A DNA stretch of 64,000 nucleotides from an uncultured bacterium (GCA_963746775.1 CAVVCK010000002.1:11571-75570); one strand, 5' to 3'. Counted from the stretch's first letter, positions 29,598 to 39,762 are shown. Notes: generated by a model not told the origin, from the sequence alone. Numbers and translations: made by a program.

Positions 29598-31514
29598 TTA
29601 GAAGTTTCCCAATGCTATATCAACTCCTCCTCTAAATTTATCGCTATAAGCAAAAAAACTTAGTAAATCATAAGGCGTACCATCGGCTTCAAAAGCTCTG
29701 ACTTGTGGTCCGCCTAATTTAGCGGCACCGGTTAATATTTCTGCCTTGCCATCCCTATCAATATCTCCCATGTCTATAGTAGCCCCAAGAGGCACCTCCC
29801 CGTAAGCTTTCCATTCACCGCGCAATGTATGCTCAGAATTATACGAAAAAACTCGGCATAAAGATTCATCATTTGCCTTACAAACACCGATTTCATCTTT
29901 GCCGTCTCCATCGATATCTCCCGCAGCTACATTGATTCCTCCCTTGTAAGATTGATCAAAAGCAAAAAACTGAATAGGCAAAGGCGTACCATCAGCTTCA
30001 AATATTCTGACCTGTGGTCCCCCACCTTCTCCGGCACCTACTATTATTTCATCCTGGCCATCATAATCTACATCACCAAAAGCGATTGAGGCGCCAGATT
30101 TTACTTCACCAAAAGCATCCCACTGTCCAACCAATGTCTTATCATTATTATATCGATAAATTTTCACAGTAGCTTTTGCTCCTTGCTCTGGAACAATGCC
30201 GATTTCATCTTTGCCGTCTCCATCGATATCTCCCGCAGCCACATTAATACCCATATTATCACTGGGATTAAAAGGCCACAATTCAATTCCTCGGGGGGTT
30301 CCGTCAGCTTCAAAAATACGCACCTGTGGACCGCCACCTTTCTTGGGAGCAGTAATAATTTCATCCTGACCATCGGCGTCAACATCTCCGGCAGCAATAT
30401 TAACTCCTCTCCTGAAATTTTCCGGATAAGGAAATAATTTATTGGGATCAGCTTGGGGTGTTCCATTTAAATCAAATACTCTAACGTGCGGACCTCCTCC
30501 TGGACCAGCCGCGGTAGCTATTTTCAAAATATCCCCAGTCAGATTAGCAGGTATGTCTTTATACCAACTCCAAGCAGCGCGTGGATTCATGTTTGTATCT
30601 AGTAAGCCAAAATTATTTTCGTAATTACCACGGTAATCATAATTTCTAATATTATATAAAAATATTCTTTCAATAAAACCTGTATTTAGAACTTGGGAAA
30701 CTGTATTTTGTAAATACTTTTTTTGGGCATTTTCATCTATTCCCTCCATTCCAGTTGAACAGCCAAGCTCTGTAATCCAAGCTTTCTTTCCGGGAGTGTA
30801 TTTATTAACAACACTTTTAAAACTGTTTAGGTCTTCTAATAATTTATGATTATTCCCATCATCTCTATAATAACCGCAATAATAAATATGAAAATTAATC
30901 GCATCATATTTATTGGTCTGACTAGCTATGCCTTCCATGAAATTATTATCAGGGTTAGCCAAGCCTCCTATTAAGACAGTAGCCTTAGGATCAATTAATT
31001 TTATAGTATCATAAGCAGAATTTAACATAGGCACATAATAATTCGGACTAGTGGGTACTAAATAATCAGGTGAATCTGGTTCATTCCAAATTTCCCAAAC
31101 GTCAACGTATTCATTATATCTAGCTACGACTGATCGAACATATTCCTCCCAAACATCTGGGTGAGGAGGGGTGAAGACACCATGATCAGGACCGTAAGCT
31201 AGAACGCCCACTACTTTAATTCCTAATTCTTCATATTCCTTCATAATAGAATCATATCTATCCAGCCAAAGATGGCCTTTATCGCCCAATATAGCTTCGG
31301 TAGAAAAATGCTCACGTACCCATTTGGTATTACTTTCCCGAAGCCTATATCTATATTGATCTTCTAGTCCGGAAGCGCCTAGCGTCCAGTGAACGTTGAG
31401 GCCTACTTCGTTTTTGGAAGGACTAAAAAATGCTTGGGCATTTTTAGAACCAATTAAAGAAAAAACAAAAACTATTATTAACAAAAAAACTAAATATTTT
31501 TTAAATATTTTCAT
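29598..31514 (-). CDS. Secreted glycoside hydrolase (TIM-barrel, GH5/GH39-like, with the WEIWNEPD acid/base motif) fused to a C-terminal FG-GAP/VCBS repeat module
   Basis: Signal peptide; VWEIWNEPD; at least 6 repeats of AAGDIDGDGKDEI...GGGPQVRIFEADGTP. It contains a perfect 41-bp intragenic direct repeat (29888-29927 and 30199-30239). Confidence 0.7.
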   Translation of the reverse strand: MKIFKKYLVFLLIIVFVFSLIGSKNAQAFFSPSKNEVGLNVHWTLGASGLEDQYRYRLRESNTKWVREHFSTEAILGDKGHLWLDRYDSIMKEYEELGIKVVGVLAYGPDHGVFTPPHPDVWEEYVRSVVARYNEYVDVWEIWNEPDSPDYLVPTSPNYYVPMLNSAYDTIKLIDPKATVLIGGLANPDNNFMEGIASQTNKYDAINFHIYYCGYYRDDGNNHKLLEDLNSFKSVVNKYTPGKKAWITELGCSTGMEGIDENAQKKYLQNTVSQVLNTGFIERIFLYNIRNYDYRGNYENNFGLLDTNMNPRAAWSWYKDIPANLTGDILKIATAAGPGGGPHVRVFDLNGTPQADPNKLFPYPENFRRGVNIAAGDVDADGQDEIITAPKKGGGPQVRIFEADGTPRGIELWPFNPSDNMGINVAAGDIDGDGKDEIGIVPEQGAKATVKIYRYNNDKTLVGQWDAFGEVKSGASIAFGDVDYDGQDEIIVGAGEGGGPQVRIFEADGTPLPIQFFAFDQSYKGGINVAAGDIDGDGKDEIGVCKANDESLCRVFSYNSEHTLRGEWKAYGEVPLGATIDMGDIDRDGKAEILTGAAKLGGPQVRAFEADGTPYDLLSFFAYSDKFRGGVDIALGNF

Positions 31515-31811: not shown

Positions 31812-34745
31812 TTATTTTAATTTTTTATAGACTTTCTCAAACATTTTCTCTTTAACAAACTTTCCAAACTCTGCATTTTCTACAATTTTTTTGTAAATAT
31901 CAAAATTGGATTCAACCATAGTATGCAATTGATCCTCAAAGATATGTGCGAAAACAAGCTTGAGTGCGTCTTTGGTGTTTGTTTTAGCGCTTTGGCTCAA
32001 TGTTTCATTCCCAGATAATCTTGTTTGTAATTCGGCAAAAAACACCTTGTCGCCTTCGGTAAAGTCGGTGCCAAATCGCTCGTTCACCTCATTAATTATG
32101 CGCGACAAAAATTCTTTTTCTTCGCCTGCACCTTTTCCTGTTCCCAATCCTTCAATCGGTTTCAATTCACCGGTCTTTTTTTCGAGCTCAATGTTTCCAC
32201 TGGAAATTTGCTGGATGCGATAAGTGTCCATATTCACATTGTCGGTAATTTCCACTGGCAATCTTTCTTTTTCGGCAGGTAATTTACGCCCAAGCATCCG
32301 CAAAAATGCATATAACTTTTCCAAATTTACATCCTTAAACGAGACAATCTGCGACAAAAAAGCATACATGCGAACATAGTTTTTTAATTGATCGCGAAAA
32401 TCAATTTTCTCTTTTTTCTCGCGCTTCAAGTATTCTTCAACAATCGGATCCAAAAGTGGATGCAGTTTTTCTTGCGTTGCTCCGCGTTTGAAAAATACTT
32501 TGGCGAAAGTTTCAACATCATTTTTGGCAAAAATACCAAAATCAAGCAGATTGCGCTCCAAATCATAAAGCTTGTTTGGGTCGGTGGCTTTGGTCAAAAT
32601 AGCTTTGTCATAATACGGCTGAAACGCTTTTTGAATTTCTTCTTCATAATTGGCAAAATCCAAAACCATCGTGTCTTCTTTGCCTTTAGTAGTGCGGTTG
32701 AGCCGGCTCAAAGTTTGCACGGCCATTACGCCACCCAATTTTTTATCAACATACATTGTATGCAAGAGCGGCTGGTCGAATCCGGTTTGGAATTTATTTG
32801 CTACAATCAAAATTTTAAATTCCGGTAATTTGAAGGTGTCGGCGGTGAGCTTATCGCTTCGCAGTCCATTCATGCCGGCTTCGGTATATTCTTTTCCACC
32901 GTCAGTTACCGTGCCGGAAAACGCCACCAAGGTTTTGATCGGGTATTTATGCTCTTTAATATATTGGTCAAAAGCAAGTTTGTAGCGTACCGCATGCAAG
33001 CGTGAACGGGAAACAATCATCGCTTTAGCGTAGCCGTCAATTTTGCGCGTAGTGTGCGATAAATAATGCTCAATAATTAATTCTGTTTTTTTTCCAATAG
33101 CATGATCATGTAATTCCACATATCCCTTCAAAAGCGCGATGCCTTTTTTCTTTTCATATTGCGGATCTTCTTCGGTTTTTTTAATCAAATTAAAGTAAGT
33201 CTGGAAAGTGGTGTAATTTTTGAGCACATCTAAAATAAAACCTTCTTCAATTGCTTGTCGCATTGAATACAAGTGAAACGGCTCAAAAGTTCCATCGGCT
33301 TTTTGGGTGCCGAAAATTTGCATGGTTTTATCTTTTGGTGTGGCGGTAAAGGCAAAGAAGCTGATATTTTTCTGTCTGCCTCGGCTAGATAATTCAGACA
33401 AAATCGCATCTTCGCTCGTCAATTCTTCTTCGCTCTCATTTTCCGCTTCGGCTTCTTCCAACGACCCAAGCGCTTTTTTCAAACTCTTGGTACTCTCGCC
33501 CGATTGTGAAGAGTGTGCCTCGTCAATAATCACAGCAAATTTTTTGCCTCCTTGCTTTGCAAGCTCATCAACAATGTAGGGAAATTTATGCAAAGTGGAA
33601 ACAATGATTTTTTTGCCGGATTCCAGCGCTTCTTTAAGTTGTTTTGAATGTTCGTCAATCGCCGCAACTACACCCTCCACTTGCGCGAATTGCCTAACTT
33701 CATCGCGAAGCTGTTTATCAATTACGCGCCGATCGGAAATAACGATTGCTGTATCAAAAATTTTCTGATCATTGGCATCGTGTAAACTGGAAAGTTTGTG
33801 AGCAAGCCATGAAATTGTTTTTGTCTTTCCGCTTCCGGCGCTGTGCTGAATGAGATATTGCTGACCGGCTCCGTACTCTCGCGCATGAGCCACCATTTTG
33901 CGCAACGCGTCCAACTGATGATAGCGCGGAAAAATAAGCGTCTCTTTTTCTTTTTGATTACCTTCCTCGTCCGTTGTCTTTTCAATAGATACGAGCATAA
34001 ATTCGGCAATAATCTGAAGCAAGCTGTCTTTTTGCAAAACTTCTTCCCATAGATACGCGCTCTTGAACCCGCTCGAATTCACCGGATTGCCAGCGCCGTT
34101 TTCAAAACCTTTGTTAAACGGCAAAAAGAATGTGGATTTGCCAGCCAAATGCGTGGTCATATACACCAAGTCATTATCCACGGCGAAATGCACCAAACAG
34201 CGCTTGAAAGCAAACAAATCCTCACGCTGGTCGCGGTCATAGCGATATTGTTTGATTGCGTCCTGTACATTTTGTCCGGTCAAATAGTTTTTCAGCTCCA
34301 GCGTGGAAATCGGCAAACCGTTCAAGAAAATCACCGTATCCAGCGACTTGCCGTCTTTTTGGCTAAACTTCACCTGTCGCATTATAGAAAAAATATTATT
34401 TTGATGTAAAAGCGCGTGTTCCGGATTCAAAGTGCTCTCGGGCGCGAAATAAACAAGCTGAAAGCGCGAACCGTAATCGGCAAAACCTTTGCGAAATACA
34501 TCTAAAATCCCGCGCGATTCAATCTCGGTTTTAAGACGATAGACAAATTTTGATTTTACTTCTTCGCCGTGCTGTTCTTTGAGTTTCTCCCATTCTTTTG
34601 GCTGGGTGGCGTAGATAAATTCAAAAAGCATTTCCTCGTCCATGCAAGATTCGGCGTTATAATTTTTTGGCTCGCGCGCACGATAGCCGGAAGCGGTCAA
34701 AACCGTTTCAATATGCGCTTCAAATGATTTTTCTGATGTATCCAT
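31812..34745 (-). CDS. hsdR: Type I restriction enzyme, R (restriction/translocase) subunit
   Basis: N-terminal PD-(D/E)xK nuclease (DTVIFLNGLPISTLELKN); SF2 helicase motifs QHSAGSGKTKT and IIDEAHSS; typical HsdR C-terminal region. Confidence 0.95.
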   Translation of the reverse strand: MDTSEKSFEAHIETVLTASGYRAREPKNYNAESCMDEEMLFEFIYATQPKEWEKLKEQHGEEVKSKFVYRLKTEIESRGILDVFRKGFADYGSRFQLVYFAPESTLNPEHALLHQNNIFSIMRQVKFSQKDGKSLDTVIFLNGLPISTLELKNYLTGQNVQDAIKQYRYDRDQREDLFAFKRCLVHFAVDNDLVYMTTHLAGKSTFFLPFNKGFENGAGNPVNSSGFKSAYLWEEVLQKDSLLQIIAEFMLVSIEKTTDEEGNQKEKETLIFPRYHQLDALRKMVAHAREYGAGQQYLIQHSAGSGKTKTISWLAHKLSSLHDANDQKIFDTAIVISDRRVIDKQLRDEVRQFAQVEGVVAAIDEHSKQLKEALESGKKIIVSTLHKFPYIVDELAKQGGKKFAVIIDEAHSSQSGESTKSLKKALGSLEEAEAENESEEELTSEDAILSELSSRGRQKNISFFAFTATPKDKTMQIFGTQKADGTFEPFHLYSMRQAIEEGFILDVLKNYTTFQTYFNLIKKTEEDPQYEKKKGIALLKGYVELHDHAIGKKTELIIEHYLSHTTRKIDGYAKAMIVSRSRLHAVRYKLAFDQYIKEHKYPIKTLVAFSGTVTDGGKEYTEAGMNGLRSDKLTADTFKLPEFKILIVANKFQTGFDQPLLHTMYVDKKLGGVMAVQTLSRLNRTTKGKEDTMVLDFANYEEEIQKAFQPYYDKAILTKATDPNKLYDLERNLLDFGIFAKNDVETFAKVFFKRGATQEKLHPLLDPIVEEYLKREKKEKIDFRDQLKNYVRMYAFLSQIVSFKDVNLEKLYAFLRMLGRKLPAEKERLPVEITDNVNMDTYRIQQISSGNIELEKKTGELKPIEGLGTGKGAGEEKEFLSRIINEVNERFGTDFTEGDKVFFAELQTRLSGNETLSQSAKTNTKDALKLVFAHIFEDQLHTMVESNFDIYKKIVENAEFGKFVKEKMFEKVYKKLK

Positions 34746-34749
34746 AGTA

Positions 34750-35436
34750 TTAAGATTTTATAAGTTCAAATAATTCTTTTACATGTTTCCAATGAATTCC
34801 ACGAAAAATATTTGCGCTACCCGCCTGGTCAGATATTGAATTTGCAAGCACCGCGATTATTTTAGTCAAATCTCTTTTTAGTACAATTGGAGCGCCGGAG
34901 TATCCTCCAGCAACAGCGCCTGATATTTGTATTGTCTTTGGTAAAGTATCCTCCAATATCTCAGTCCCTACTAACCCTTCTGCATAAGTTGGTGTATGCC
35001 TTGCATTTAACAAAGCATTACCAAATGGAAATCCGGCATAAGCCACATCTTCACCCACGCTTATTGTTTCTTCACAAATATCAAGTCCAGATAAAACTTG
35101 TTGCATAAGGTAATTTTCATCTGCTTCGATATTCAAAATTGCCAGATCATGGATATAATCTAAAATTGATATGGTTGCTTTTTTATATTCAACGCCATTA
35201 CCACCGACTACCAACATACCTGAAACCTCAACGGGTGCGCCTATAATATCTTGGACAACATGAGCACATGTGATAAAAGCTTTTTTATCTTTCAGCCAAA
35301 ATCCCGTTCCTTTGATTGTTAATTTTGGGGGCAAAAAATCATTAGTTTGTGGGTTAAACTGTGGTTTAATTATGCCAACAGTTCTTACGGCGCTACATAC
35401 ATAAGGTGCATTGTTTGTTGTTTGGTTCGCTGTCAT
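34750..35436 (-). CDS. Cytoplasmic trypsin-like (S1/Trypsin_2-type) serine protease encoded inside the hsdM-hsdS-X-hsdR operon
   Basis: Catalytic triad candidates: His in FITCAHVV, Asp in HDLAILN, Ser in GGYSGAPIV (GxSGxP). It has no signal peptide and no PDZ domain. It sits 10 nt downstream of hsdS and 4 nt upstream of hsdR. Confidence 0.75.
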   Translation of the reverse strand: MTANQTTNNAPYVCSAVRTVGIIKPQFNPQTNDFLPPKLTIKGTGFWLKDKKAFITCAHVVQDIIGAPVEVSGMLVVGGNGVEYKKATISILDYIHDLAILNIEADENYLMQQVLSGLDICEETISVGEDVAYAGFPFGNALLNARHTPTYAEGLVGTEILEDTLPKTIQISGAVAGGYSGAPIVLKRDLTKIIAVLANSISDQAGSANIFRGIHWKHVKELFELIKS

Positions 35437-35446
35437 ATTATTTTAA

Positions 35447-36727
35447 TTAAATTTTAATTTTACCAGTCACGGCATTAGTAATAAGAGCTTGGCGATATTC
35501 TTGCAGTTTTTCAATTTGCATTTCCACCTTTTTCATCATCTCATTAATCTTCGCCGTCTCACGGTCTATATAATCAATAATTTTTTGCTGTTCCTCTCTT
35601 GATGGATACGCAACCTGCAAAGTTTTTATAAACTCCCATTCGGCACGGGGCATTTTTGCGCCCTGTGTTGAAGAATCAATATAATTTATGAAATCAGCGG
35701 TCAATATCCTATGAAGTAAAAACTTATTTATTAAAAATTTGTTTGTTCTAAAAACAAGCGCTTCGCCGACACACAAGCCATCTCGTTCAGTAATCATAGC
35801 TTTAGCAAGATATGGTCTCAATTTACCGAACAAAACATCTCCGGCAATAAATTTTTTTAGATCTCCTTCTGGGGATTTTTGATTTTCCGGTGATACAAAT
35901 TTTCCAGACCAGCTCTCTATATTTTCCAAAGCAATAATAAGATCGCTTTTGTCGTCATCGGTTGCTTTATCTACAACATTTTTTAAAAGGTAGTTTAATC
36001 GCTTCACTTTCCACCCTTCAGGAATATCTCCTAGCCAATCAATGCCGGAAGGTTTCATTTTTGCTTTTGTATCAATGCCTTTGGTCACGGCGTGCGTAAT
36101 CAGTGCTTGGCGCTTTTCTTTAAGCAAATCAATCATCTTTTGCTTTTTCGCCACCATCTCATCAATTTTCGCCGTCTCTCGGTCGAGAAAATCAGCGATA
36201 GATTTTTGCACCGTTTTTTCCGGGAAAGGAAAAATAATTTGTTTTAATTTTGGCGGTCTAATCTCAAAAATAGTTGTACCGACTGAAATAGCATTTAAAT
36301 AATCTTTCAGGATTTTTAAAGTATAAAATAAATATTTTGTGAATATTTTTTCATTTACTTTAATACCGGCAATACCTTGTTTTGTTGTGAGTGGAATATT
36401 CGCTATTCCAACTTCACCTATTGTTGCTCCAAAAGAGATAATAATATCGCCAACATCCCAAATCTTCGCGTTTGATTCCTTATAACCCTTTTCGCTAATT
36501 TTTTCTTTAGTCTCGTTTATTTCATCTTTAATATCGTCGACAACCAGCCAATTTATATCGCCGTCAAAATTATCAGCCTCACTACGAGAAGGCGTTCCAC
36601 CATCTTCAATAGCCCAGCTCAAATATTTCAACTTGCATTCTTCCCATCCCGCAGGAATATCTCCCAGCCAGTCAATGCCGGATGGTTTATATTTGGAATA
36701 TGTTTTGTATTTTGTCGCGGTAATCAT
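35447..36727 (-). CDS. hsdS: Type I restriction enzyme, S (specificity) subunit with two target-recognition domains
   Basis: Conserved central spacer ...LDRETAKIDEMVAKKQKMIDLLKEKRQALITHAVTKGI and C-terminal repeat LQEYRQALITNAVTGKIKI; a duplicated KPSGIDWLGDIP TRD N-cap. Confidence 0.9.
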   Translation of the reverse strand: MITATKYKTYSKYKPSGIDWLGDIPAGWEECKLKYLSWAIEDGGTPSRSEADNFDGDINWLVVDDIKDEINETKEKISEKGYKESNAKIWDVGDIIISFGATIGEVGIANIPLTTKQGIAGIKVNEKIFTKYLFYTLKILKDYLNAISVGTTIFEIRPPKLKQIIFPFPEKTVQKSIADFLDRETAKIDEMVAKKQKMIDLLKEKRQALITHAVTKGIDTKAKMKPSGIDWLGDIPEGWKVKRLNYLLKNVVDKATDDDKSDLIIALENIESWSGKFVSPENQKSPEGDLKKFIAGDVLFGKLRPYLAKAMITERDGLCVGEALVFRTNKFLINKFLLHRILTADFINYIDSSTQGAKMPRAEWEFIKTLQVAYPSREEQQKIIDYIDRETAKINEMMKKVEMQIEKLQEYRQALITNAVTGKIKI

Positions 36728-36729
36728 AA

Positions 36730-38760
36730 TTAAATATCCGTTAGCATTTTGGCGATTTCATCTTCCAATTTTTTAATATCACCGCCAATTTCATCAAGAG
36801 GACGGAGCGGTTTGTATTCGTAAAAATAGCGGGTAAAGCTAATTTCATAACCCACCTTACCAATTTTGCCGTCTTTGTGATCGCAATATTTTTTATCATC
36901 GCTAATCCATGCGTCCGGAACATGAGGCAAAACTTCGCGCGTAAAATAAGTTTTAATATCCTCGCCGAGCGGGACATTTTCGTAATCGCGCAAATCTACA
37001 TCCGGTTCCGGTTTACCTTTTTTGTCGGTAATAACATCAGCTGTTTCATCGCGTTCGGAAAGTCCCTTGAGAATGGCTTTTTTGACCGGCGCGTCCAGTT
37101 TGAGATCAGCTTTTTTGAAAGTCGCTTCTAAAACTTCAACAAACTTGTCTTGATTTTTATAAAGTGTGTCACCAATGGTGGCAAGCGCTTTTTGAATAGA
37201 TATTTGGAGTGCAAAGCCGGCTTTTTCTTCTTCCAGTTTTTTGAGCGGATCGCGCTTTTTGCTTTTGGCAAGATTTTGAAAAGCGGATTCGGTTTTTAAT
37301 TTTTCTAAACGTTCGGCGCTGGCTTGAAAATTCAGTTTGAGCGGGCGTTCAATCGTGATTTTGCGATAACCGAAAAATTCATTCGGGAACACTTTGACGA
37401 TTTTGCTCTTTTCGCCATCCAAAGTAAGTTCGGTAATTTTTTGGATTTGCTCGTCAGAAATGACATTGCGTTTGTCTCCCAAGCTCTTGCGCATTTTTTC
37501 GTAGAGATCAGCTGCATTGATGAGTTTTACTTTGCCTTTGTGATGATCTTTTTTGCGATTGGTCAGGACCCAAATATAAGTATGAATGCCTGTGTTATAA
37601 AAAAGTTGGTTTGGCAGAGCAATGATTGTCTCCAGTAAATCATTCTCAATAATCCATCTGCGAATTTCGCTTTCACCGCTTCCCGCATCACCTGTAAAGA
37701 GCGGCGATCCGTTCATAACAATAGCGATACGGCTACCACCATTTTTAGGCTTCATTTTAGCAAGCATTGTTTGGAGGAAAAGCAACTGACCGTCGCTAAT
37801 GCGCGGAAGGCCAGCGCCAAATCGTCCTTGAAACCCAAGTTCTGCTTCTTTTTCTATTTCCTTTTGGTCTTTCTTCCATTCCTTGCCATAGGGCGGATTG
37901 GAAAGCATATAATCAAACGTTTGACCGAAGAGATGATCATGCGAAAGTGTAGAGCCGAATTTGATATTATCGGCGTTTTCGCCCTTGATAAGTAGGTCGG
38001 ATTTGGCAACGGCAAAAGTTTCTGGATTCACTTCTTGACCAAACATTTCCACTTGAGCCGTATCGTTTACGCTTTCCAAAATCCATTCTTTGGCTTCGGT
38101 AAGCATGCCGCCGCTTCCGCAAGCCGGATCATAAATGGTTTTGATAATGCGTTGTCTTTTTAAAATTTCCAAATCCGGAGAAAACAGAAGATTGACCATC
38201 AAACGAATAATTTCGCGGGGAGTAAAGTGTTCTCCTGGATTTTCGTTTGAGGCTTCGTTAAATTTACGAATCAATTCTTCAAAAACATAACCCATCGCCA
38301 AATTGCTTACACGATCAGGATGCATTTCGACTTCGCTAAATTGTTCTATAACTTGGTAGGTGAGATTCGCTTCTTCAAGCGCGTCAATTTGCGTGTTGAA
38401 TTTGAACTTATCAATTATTTCGCGCATGAGTGGACTATACGCGTTGATATACAGACGAAGGTTTTTGCCGATATTTTTCGGATCGTCTAAAAGTTTTTTG
38501 AAATCATATTGCGAAGTATTATAAAAATTGTATCCGCTCGCTTTTTTCAAAATACCGTCCATGTCTTCCAGCTTGCCTTTGTATTTTTCATACTTCACCA
38601 AAACATCGGCTTTGGTATCTTCAAGCGCGGCATCAAGACGGCGCAAAACGGTTAGAGGCAAAATAACATCCGGATATTTTGCGCGCTTAAAGTCATCGCG
38701 TAAAAGATTTGCGATGCTCCAGATAAAATTGACGATTTGTTGGTGGTTATTTTGGTTCAT
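36730..38760 (-). CDS. hsdM: Type I restriction enzyme, M (N6-adenine methyltransferase) subunit, with an about-150-aa C-terminal extension
   Basis: HsdM_N domain; motif I DPACGSGGML; motif IV NPPYG. At 676 aa it is longer than typical HsdM (about 520 aa). Confidence 0.95.
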   Translation of the reverse strand: MNQNNHQQIVNFIWSIANLLRDDFKRAKYPDVILPLTVLRRLDAALEDTKADVLVKYEKYKGKLEDMDGILKKASGYNFYNTSQYDFKKLLDDPKNIGKNLRLYINAYSPLMREIIDKFKFNTQIDALEEANLTYQVIEQFSEVEMHPDRVSNLAMGYVFEELIRKFNEASNENPGEHFTPREIIRLMVNLLFSPDLEILKRQRIIKTIYDPACGSGGMLTEAKEWILESVNDTAQVEMFGQEVNPETFAVAKSDLLIKGENADNIKFGSTLSHDHLFGQTFDYMLSNPPYGKEWKKDQKEIEKEAELGFQGRFGAGLPRISDGQLLFLQTMLAKMKPKNGGSRIAIVMNGSPLFTGDAGSGESEIRRWIIENDLLETIIALPNQLFYNTGIHTYIWVLTNRKKDHHKGKVKLINAADLYEKMRKSLGDKRNVISDEQIQKITELTLDGEKSKIVKVFPNEFFGYRKITIERPLKLNFQASAERLEKLKTESAFQNLAKSKKRDPLKKLEEEKAGFALQISIQKALATIGDTLYKNQDKFVEVLEATFKKADLKLDAPVKKAILKGLSERDETADVITDKKGKPEPDVDLRDYENVPLGEDIKTYFTREVLPHVPDAWISDDKKYCDHKDGKIGKVGYEISFTRYFYEYKPLRPLDEIGGDIKKLEDEIAKMLTDI

Positions 38761-38865: not shown

Positions 38866-39762
38866 TTAACTTCCTTCAAAAAAATCTTCATCAATTTCTT
38901 TTACTTCATAAATATTACTTATTTGTAAACCAACTTTATATTCATGCATTAAATTTACAAGATTATTTCCATCGATAAGAATTATTTTATGATGAGCTTC
39001 ACGGGCTTTTTTTATAGCCGAATCATCAAAAGTTGATGTAGTTACAAAAATACCCTTCGTAGTATCTCCACTCATTGCTCCGATAAAGTTACGAATCTCT
39101 TTTTCGCGAACCTTATTTTCATTGTAACGCTTTGCTTGAATATAAATTTTTTCGAGACCAAGTTTGTCCTCATTGATAATCCCATCAATTCCACCATCTC
39201 CAGATTTTGCAGTCTCAACAAAATCACCATACCCCATTTTTTTAAGAAGTATTAAAATTACTTTTTCAAAGTAATAAGGATCAATACTTTTTAATTTTTC
39301 TAATAATTCTGTTTCTACTTGTCTTTCAATCTTAGAAAAACCCGAGTCTATTAAATCTTGAGGAGAAGCATTTTCAATGTCTGAATTATTGTCTATAGAT
39401 TCTATTTCTTTTTCAACTTTTTTGTTATTCTCATATTCTAAATAATCTGGATCATTTTTTAAGTCTTTTAATGTAAGTTTTCCAAGAGCAAGAATCTTTT
39501 TACCTTTTTCTGTTATTTTAACCATCGCACGCTCTGGCTGTTCAATCATTTTAGCTTGTTTTAAATATCCTTTCCCCCATCCTATACGATTTAATATTAA
39601 AGGATCTCCACTTTTAGTTTTTTGTGTTAAAAGTTCTTGAGGTAAATCAGAATAATATTTATCTCGAACTCTTTTACGTAATTCATTATAGTGTAAAACT
39701 TCACCATCGGATAAAACTTCTAAAATAGGTATAAATGTTTCGTGAAATTTTGGTAAATCCAT
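38866..39762 (-). CDS. mrr: Mrr-family type IV (modification-dependent) restriction endonuclease
   Basis: Mrr_N winged helix (FIPILEVLSDGEVLHYNELRKRV) plus a PD-(D/E)xK core (GDGGIDGI...E...QAKRY) and the GIFVTTSTF tail typical of Mrr_cat. Confidence 0.85.
   Translation of the reverse strand: MDLPKFHETFIPILEVLSDGEVLHYNELRKRVRDKYYSDLPQELLTQKTKSGDPLILNRIGWGKGYLKQAKMIEQPERAMVKITEKGKKILALGKLTLKDLKNDPDYLEYENNKKVEKEIESIDNNSDIENASPQDLIDSGFSKIERQVETELLEKLKSIDPYYFEKVILILLKKMGYGDFVETAKSGDGGIDGIINEDKLGLEKIYIQAKRYNENKVREKEIRNFIGAMSGDTTKGIFVTTSTFDDSAIKKAREAHHKIILIDGNNLVNLMHEYKVGLQISNIYEVKEIDEDFFEGS

Follow-up and report, generated by a model that had tools for sequence, protein, structure and literature searches.

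Type I restriction-modification (RM), BREX, and DISARM loci often nest other defence genes, and 145 candidates have been derived from them (10.1101/2024.01.29.577857). The gene prrC is embedded in the EcoprrI type I locus (PMC12707154), and PrrC is found almost exclusively embedded in type I RM systems (10.1101/2024.01.29.577857). Ronin provides a further precedent, in which HsdMS can cage a toxic effector (10.1101/2023.04.06.535777). The candidate PDC-M35 comprises a two-gene cassette, FAM_02427>>FAM_02508 (10.1101/2024.01.29.577857, supplementary file 8). Furthermore, in the trypsin-MBL module, the trypsin cleaves the co-encoded MBL DNase at KSS motifs (10.1101/2025.09.03.673762). With regard to restriction alleviation, the precedent is the degradation of the HsdR of EcoKI by ClpXP (PMC12707154). 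Here, we describe a protease gene located between hsdS and hsdR in a stretch of 64,000 nucleotides from an uncultured bacterium (GCA_963746775.1 CAVVCK010000002.1:11571-75570), hereafter referred to as the window. The product is predicted to be an active, cytoplasmic, single-domain HtrA-like serine protease of a small, horizontally mobile family, and the gene is probably a new anti-phage accessory gene of the kind known to nest in type I RM operons.

PrrC (EcoprrI, type Ic) and Ronin (RonA with HsdMS) likewise represent an accessory, potentially toxic effector nested in an hsd operon and co-expressed with it, and they supply the concept of an RM guardian. However, neither is related to the window protease in sequence or fold: PrrC combines an ABC-ATPase with an anticodon nuclease, and RonA is a membrane peptide of 61 aa. 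Only Trypsin_2 and protease models of Pfam, PADLOC, and NCBIfam match the window protease, with no PrrC homology among them. Whereas PrrC is almost exclusively hsd-embedded, the protease family is hsd-linked in only 15 of the 37 loci described below. PDC-M35 was identified by the same guilt-by-embedding logic, as an uncharacterised gene within type I RM, BREX, or DISARM. The window protease is homologous to PDC-M35A over model positions 18–195 of 216, although the match is weak (47.7 bits, E 3.7e-13), and for this reason the two are regarded as related families rather than one family. PDC-M35 is a two-gene arrangement (A>>B), whereas the slot in the window holds one non-hsd gene, and PDC-M35B is absent from the scanned neighbours.

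The trypsin-like defence modules, i.e., trypsin-MBL in Hachiman, Avs, and UG9, retron XI, and the Lamassu LmuA-protease, resemble the window protease in their fold, in being cytoplasmic, and in their occurrence in defence islands. Each of them comes with a sensor (STAND, helicase, RT, or SMC-like), either as a fusion or as a separate partner, and often with a co-encoded substrate; by contrast, the window protease is unfused, is not accompanied by an MBL gene, and lacks a conserved partner. No gene for an MBL-fold nuclease was found among its neighbours in the window or among approximately 50 neighbours in related loci. The best PADLOC HMM matches are the retron type XI RT-protease (2.9e-14), PDC-M35A (3.7e-13), and LmuA (5e-8), all of them weak at 31–51 bits and little above the generic Trypsin_2 match (42.9 bits). 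In the retron model, only the protease half is matched (model positions 350–505 of 510), and the RT domain is absent from the window protease. The closest solved structures to the protease model are those of HtrA, DegP, DegS, and DegQ (MEROPS S1C), with which the catalytic motifs align. The window protease nevertheless differs from the HtrA/DegP family proper in having neither a signal peptide nor a PDZ domain and in its low identity (16–24%). The NCBIfam models for DegP, HtrA, and MarP score 21–31 bits against cut-offs of 250–800 (TIGR02037, 21.1 versus 416; MarP, 31.3 versus 250).

In the literature searched, PDC-M35 is unmentioned in main texts and no link of PF13365 to RM embedding was found; the window protease family itself was not found there, nor is it in PADLOC as such. 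An earlier note on this DNA, made from the sequence alone, had presented either of its two readings of a protease embedded in an RM operon as new biology. This claim was overstated: a catalogue of candidate genes nested within type I RM systems has been published, including the homologous PDC-M35A (10.1101/2024.01.29.577857), and trypsin-like defence effectors are established.

The protease gene and its host operon

The features of the locus are as follows, from upstream to downstream:

38866..39762 (−), Mrr-type type IV restriction endonuclease, 105 nt upstream of hsdM
36730..38760 (−), HsdM, 676 aa, N6-adenine methyltransferase (N6_Mtase 3.5e-62, HsdM_N)
35447..36727 (−), HsdS, 426 aa, specificity subunit with two target-recognition domains (Methylase_S 3.7e-27)
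35437..35446 (−), upstream cassette edge by DNA homology, 10-nt AT-rich spacer TTAAAATAAT from the hsdS stop to the protease ATG
34750..35436 (−), protease gene, 228 aa, predicted single-domain trypsin-fold (HtrA-like) serine protease (ORF, Pfam, AF2 model)
35260-35262 (−), His59 codon, motif ITCAHVV, catalytic residue of the protease by alignment
35146-35148 (−), Asp97 codon, motif HDLAILN, catalytic residue of the protease by alignment
34897-34899 (−), Ser180 codon, motif GGYSGAPIV, catalytic residue of the protease by alignment
34746..34752 (−), downstream cassette edge by DNA homology, including the 4-nt spacer TACT before the hsdR ATG
31812..34745 (−), HsdR, 977 aa, restriction/translocase subunit (HSDR_N, ResIII, SWI2_SNF2, T1R_D3-like)

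The order hsdM-2 nt-hsdS-10 nt-protease-4 nt-hsdR, all on the minus strand, was obtained on recomputing the spacings and agrees with the placement within a type I operon given in the earlier note. Catalytic motifs are intact in HsdM (DPACGSGG at 211, NPPY at 288) and in HsdR (ELK nuclease motif at residue 150, GSGKT at 304, DEAH at 408), and these motifs together with the Pfam, PADLOC, and NCBIfam matches predict a complete type I RM system. Promoter-like and terminator-like matches within the operon occur at chance level (25 found versus 27.8 expected), on account of which co-transcription of the protease with hsdM, hsdS, and hsdR is considered likely. The GC content of the hsd operon is 0.36–0.41 versus 0.25–0.30 in the flanks, and that of the adjoining Mrr gene (0.287) is host-like; by composition, the hsd operon appears foreign to the host and horizontally acquired. 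A tRNA scan of the 64-kb window found no tRNA as an integration site.

Several further features of the window were noted. The type I operon seems to be inserted beside the resident Mrr gene within a polysaccharide/glycosyltransferase gene region, in accordance with the annotation of locus L031. Directly downstream of hsdR (29598-31514, minus strand; GC 0.388), a 638-aa protein is encoded with an N-terminal hydrophobic segment and 'GDxDxDGxDEI...GGGPQVRxFEADGTP' repeats resembling the FG-GAP/VCBS type. L031:1937-13226 (Logan ERR11571143) is a second assembly of the window locus, 99.99% identical across 11.3 kb. One base differs between the two at approximately 32412 of the window (hsdR codon ~778), where the window has a run of six A (A6) and L031 one of five (A5); the A5 version splits hsdR into 786 + 185 aa and leaves the protease intact. 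This difference could be a true hsdR-inactivating polymorphism or an assembly error.

The protease ORF begins with an ATG and is the longest frame available, and a concealed N-terminal extension is therefore excluded. The product matches Trypsin_2 (PF13365) over residues 43–186 at 42.9 bits (E=1.1e-10), above the gathering score of 27.6, and a Pfam scan of all 228 residues matched no second domain and no PDZ domain. His59, Asp97, and Ser180 lie in the canonical His-Asp-Ser order and motifs, which a family profile alignment places against the catalytic VTNAHVI / TDLAVLK / GNSGGP of M. tuberculosis HtrA1. The complete S1-type triad proposed in the earlier note is thus supported by the motifs, by this alignment, and by the PF13365 score. 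Furthermore, the three residues are invariant in 120 of 120 homologues with identities down to 45%, as that proposal had implied, and the triad appears to be under strong purifying selection. No signal peptide or TM helix was detected by hydropathy (maximum Kyte-Doolittle 19-residue mean 1.45; N-terminal windows ≤0.5), and from their absence the protease is predicted to be cytoplasmic; hydropathy and Pfam agree here with the earlier note, which had also described the protein as devoid of a signal peptide, TM helix, and PDZ domain.

An AlphaFold2 model of the protease was built from 27 diverse homologues (pLDDT 75.6, pTM 0.77). In a Foldseek search, the predicted model had 735 PDB matches at E≤1e-3, and the best 50 of the 735 were all HtrA-type protease domains. 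The top matches, i.e., the protease domains of HtrA1, DegP, DegS, DegQ, and plant Deg1, Deg2, and Deg9, have E values of 3e-11 to 1e-8, TM scores of 0.6–0.7, and identities of 16–24%. The fold suggested in the earlier note is accordingly borne out by both Pfam and the model, which is predicted to adopt the double β-barrel chymotrypsin fold. Confidence is low at residues 140–145, ~158–167, and 201–208, and these poorly ordered stretches, judged from their position relative to Ser180, would be equivalent to LD, L3, and L2, the activation loops of HtrA. Residues 140–145 fall in an invariant loop specific to the family, residues 136–154 (with P137, G139, L142, L143, P149, Y151, and E153), and an invariant loop region modelled with low confidence would be compatible with an allosterically switched protease.

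Family distribution and genomic context

A word-indexed search recovered 237 clusters of the protease family at 90% identity, nearly all of 210–250 aa, and an exhaustive profile search returned only 17 of 1.84 billion representatives at E≤1e-30. Below this core, the scores fall abruptly to a generic Trypsin_2 background of multi-domain proteins at ≤82 bits. No fusions occur in the E≤1e-30 core, in which every member has ≤252 aa. On the basis of the drop in score past the 17 core representatives, the family is considered small, sharply bounded, and single-domain.

All known members of the family come from metagenomes or metagenome-assembled genomes (MAGs). The family occurs in MAGs of Patescibacteria (Saccharibacteria and Nomura-, Colwell-, Magasanik-, and Moranbacteria), in those of Omnitrophota, Planctomycetia, Deltaproteobacteria, Gammaproteobacteria, Verrucomicrobia, and Lentisphaerae, and in those of Acidimicrobiales, Bifidobacteriaceae, Acidobacteria, and Chitinophagaceae. 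The window protease is 63–68% identical to copies from Omnitrophota, Planctomycetia, and Deltaproteobacteria MAGs, and such a patchy spread over several phyla at this cross-phylum identity has the appearance of horizontal transfer. Searches of IMG/VR viral contigs and GenBank phages returned no member, and the only plasmid matches in PLSDB were remote and partial, on two Vibrio plasmids with an unrelated PEP-CTERM context; a PHROG search with the protease gave weak matches only. A phage or plasmid origin was rejected owing to this absence from IMG/VR, GenBank phages, and PLSDB.

The genomic context was compared across 37 independent loci, comprising the window, 30 loci found by scanning species-representative genomes without regard to context, and 6 exact look-ups chosen on contig size. 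Type I hsd genes lie within three genes of the protease in 15 loci (~40%), and in ten of the 37 the protease is directly 5′ of hsdR at a spacing of −11 to +4 nt (window, L005, L006, L007, L016, L028, L118, L119, L120, and L122). This position is kept where Hypoth_Ymh, DUF3644, or a 208-aa ORF separates hsdS from the protease, and the HsdRs of these operons are as low as 41% identical. Usable contigs were available for four close relatives of the protease (73–83% identical), and all four lie directly 5′ of hsdR; in L010 and L011 the protease is located between a half-hsdS and hsdM. A chance insertion, which the earlier note had allowed for should homologues prove unlinked to hsd, is thus disfavoured by the recurrence of the linkage.

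Approximately ten more of the 37 loci adjoin other restriction or defence genes. A type II RM context is HNH-protease-Dcm-EcoO109I, and neighbours elsewhere include an EcoRI-type methylase with GmrSD/HNH, Mrr (twice), a PLD-SNF2 helicase with an Eco57I-like methylase, MazG together with a Schlafen-type helicase/S24 protein and an HNH-SRA protein, PD-T4-4, a PD-T4-6-like kinase, and RhuM. Overall, ~70% of the 37 loci show an RM or defence context, whereas 11 (~30%) have no recognisable defence neighbour and adjoin aldo-keto reductase, GroEL, Mur ligase, or glycosidases. In an all-versus-all clustering of 426 neighbour ORFs from 31 protease loci, no conserved partner or substrate gene was found; only Hsd subunits, Fic, and a YgjP-like metallopeptidase recur in at least 4 of the 31. 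The scanned neighbours include no MBL, gasdermin, PDC-M35B, or antitoxin-like partner, and no conserved housekeeping synteny surrounds the protease across the loci. In a rough NJ tree, hsd-embedded proteases occur at no fewer than six separate places, interspersed with non-embedded members.

Two neighbours were noted separately. A gene for a YgjP-like (PF01863) metallopeptidase lies downstream of hsdR in three protease-bearing operons (L005, L010, L011) and adjoins the protease in L004 (1080-1649), and it represents a second protease type linked to protease-bearing RM loci. In a Bifidobacteriaceae MAG (L026:4374-6566), a serpin (PF00079, 1e-121) is encoded two ORFs after the protease homologue; the N-terminus of the serpin is hydrophobic and signal-like, and the proximity is probably a coincidence rather than a protease/inhibitor pairing.

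The slot between hsdS and hsdR

The edges of the cassette can be drawn from three related operons, L038, L039, and L040, whose HsdRs are 95–96% identical to that of the window; the HsdM of L038 is 97% identical to its window counterpart. DNA similarity between the window and these loci is 84–90% over hsdM, the conserved parts of hsdS, and the entire hsdR. The homology stops at 35447, the hsdS stop, and restarts at 34746-34752, just before the hsdR ATG. In L039, the slot is empty, with 21 nt between hsdS and hsdR, and in L040 it is occupied by Fic. The slot of L038 (6197-6914) contains a 4-fold beta-flower protein (PF21784, 2e-27) and an unannotated 115-aa ORF instead of the protease.

A scan for relatives of the window HsdR returned 80 metagenome loci, L038, L039, and L040 among them, and the protease is absent from all 80. 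Of the 67 slots surveyed for this HsdR family, 27 are empty and 37 have an insert of at least 600 bp. The contents include Abi_2, SIR2_2, GmrSD, AAA_15/AAA_21 ATPases, SLFN_AlbA_2/HATPase_c_4, Peptidase_M78, DUF3800, Fic, and an IS200-like transposase-related gene. The hsdS-hsdR slot is a general docking site, or hotspot, for accessory defence genes.

In pairwise comparison of the loci, protease identity shows no correlation with HsdR identity (r=0.13). Between the window and L118, for example, the proteases are 82% and the HsdRs 42% identical, and between L006 and L007 the values are 55% and 91%, respectively. Since the two identities do not track each other, the protease is regarded as a mobile accessory cassette; it is a one-gene cassette set precisely into the hsdS-hsdR slot and mobile relative to HsdR. 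A partnership specific to this HsdR was rejected, given that none of the 80 loci of the same HsdR family carries the protease and that the identities are uncorrelated.

The commonest occupant of the slot is an unannotated family of 323–345 aa without a Pfam match, which is present in 11 of 67 loci (L069:1635-2636, L071, L073, L076-L079, L083, L084, L099, and L107) and is itself a candidate embedded defence gene.

Possible roles of the protease

We favour the reading that the protease is a latent second-line defence effector carried as an embedded accessory gene, and assign it a probability of roughly 0.6. It is favoured because a conserved, predicted cytoplasmic protease is encoded by a mobile one-gene cassette that has been captured repeatedly in RM operons and defence islands, features which match the 'embedded defence gene' pattern of Payne et al. 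(10.1101/2024.01.29.577857). The latent protease would be made together with the restriction complex and would be switched on by phage infection. Once activated, it may cleave one or more host or phage proteins, leading to abortive infection or growth arrest; alternatively, it may inactivate a phage factor as a second line of defence. We infer the defence function, latency, trigger, and substrate alike. Trigger and target are left unexplained by this reading because the protease has neither a sensor domain nor a conserved co-encoded partner or substrate; to our knowledge, characterised protease-based defence systems have both. The 11 of 37 loci without a recognisable defence neighbour count against a defence effector.

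A functional coupling to HsdR, in which the protease either stays latent until an anti-restriction attack, as an analogue of PrrC, or controls HsdR itself, is considered doubtful. If it were true, the fixed place before hsdR would reflect a required co-translational or stoichiometric relationship, and the protease would be the first proteolytic 'RM guardian', providing abortive infection by a new killing chemistry. For the former of these, the Hsd complex, most plausibly through HsdR, would bind and silence the protease in the manner of PrrC and Ronin; disabling of the complex by a phage anti-restriction protein (Ocr, ArdA, or Stp-like) would release the protease, which would then kill or arrest the cell by proteolysis. 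Embedding within a type I locus, as for prrC in EcoprrI (PMC12707154), and the caging of a toxic effector by HsdMS in Ronin (10.1101/2023.04.06.535777) are consistent with such silencing. So is the position directly 5′ of hsdR in ten operons, held within −11 to +4 nt even with co-resident accessory genes and with HsdRs 41% identical, and the occurrence of hsd-embedded members at six or more places in the tree suggests repeated selection for the hsd context. However, the association is not exclusive, with 22 of 37 protease loci lacking hsd genes whereas PrrC is nearly exclusive to them; protease identity does not vary with HsdR identity (r=0.13); a 96%-identical HsdR operates in operons devoid of the protease; and proteases of the same clade adjoin type II or type IV systems or stand alone. 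Silencing by the Hsd complex is therefore judged unlikely.

Control of HsdR itself had been proposed in the earlier note as restriction alleviation, whereby the protease would degrade HsdR upon the appearance of unmodified self DNA. Entry of the operon into a new host would be a further occasion for such degradation. The degradation of HsdR by ClpXP is established (PMC12707154). The tight 4-nt coupling to hsdR and the conservation of the directly 5′ position in ten operons argue in the same direction, and a mobile RM operon equipped with its own safeguard would gain a foothold in new hosts more readily. Nevertheless, the near-identical operons L038, L039, and L040 do without the protease, and the family adjoins type II RM, Mrr, GmrSD, non-RM defence genes, and non-defence contexts devoid of HsdR; for these reasons, a role in degrading HsdR is disfavoured and regarded as highly improbable. 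The family also occurs in MAGs of Gammaproteobacteria, which normally possess ClpXP. It is likewise very unlikely that the protease has no role in defence and serves instead in cytoplasmic quality control or processing, or is a selfish passenger, having arrived by chance in a recombination-prone slot. The housekeeping neighbours in ~30% of protease loci and the admission of IS200-like transposase-related genes to the slot would accord with a passenger, whereas the patchy, HGT-like distribution over phyla with no conserved housekeeping synteny, the RM or defence context of ~70% of the loci, the absence of the family from phage, viral-contig, and plasmid collections, and the strong purifying selection indicated for the triad would not.

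Earlier descriptions exist both of defence genes nested within RM systems and of trypsin-like effectors in defence. What appears to be new is a bare single-domain protease family with neither a sensor nor a substrate partner, unlike the known protease-bearing systems, and such a protease raises the question of how it is silenced and what it cuts. The operons with a 96%-identical HsdR, in which the slot is empty or occupied by Fic or the beta-flower protein, constitute natural near-isogenic controls, by which silencing of the protease by the Hsd complex and control of HsdR by the protease are directly testable by cloning. Furthermore, the hsdS-hsdR junction of this HsdR family, as a busy site of defence-gene exchange, is useful for mining new systems. 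If the protease is functional, a minimal one-gene protease would join the effectors that ride inside restriction-modification operons.
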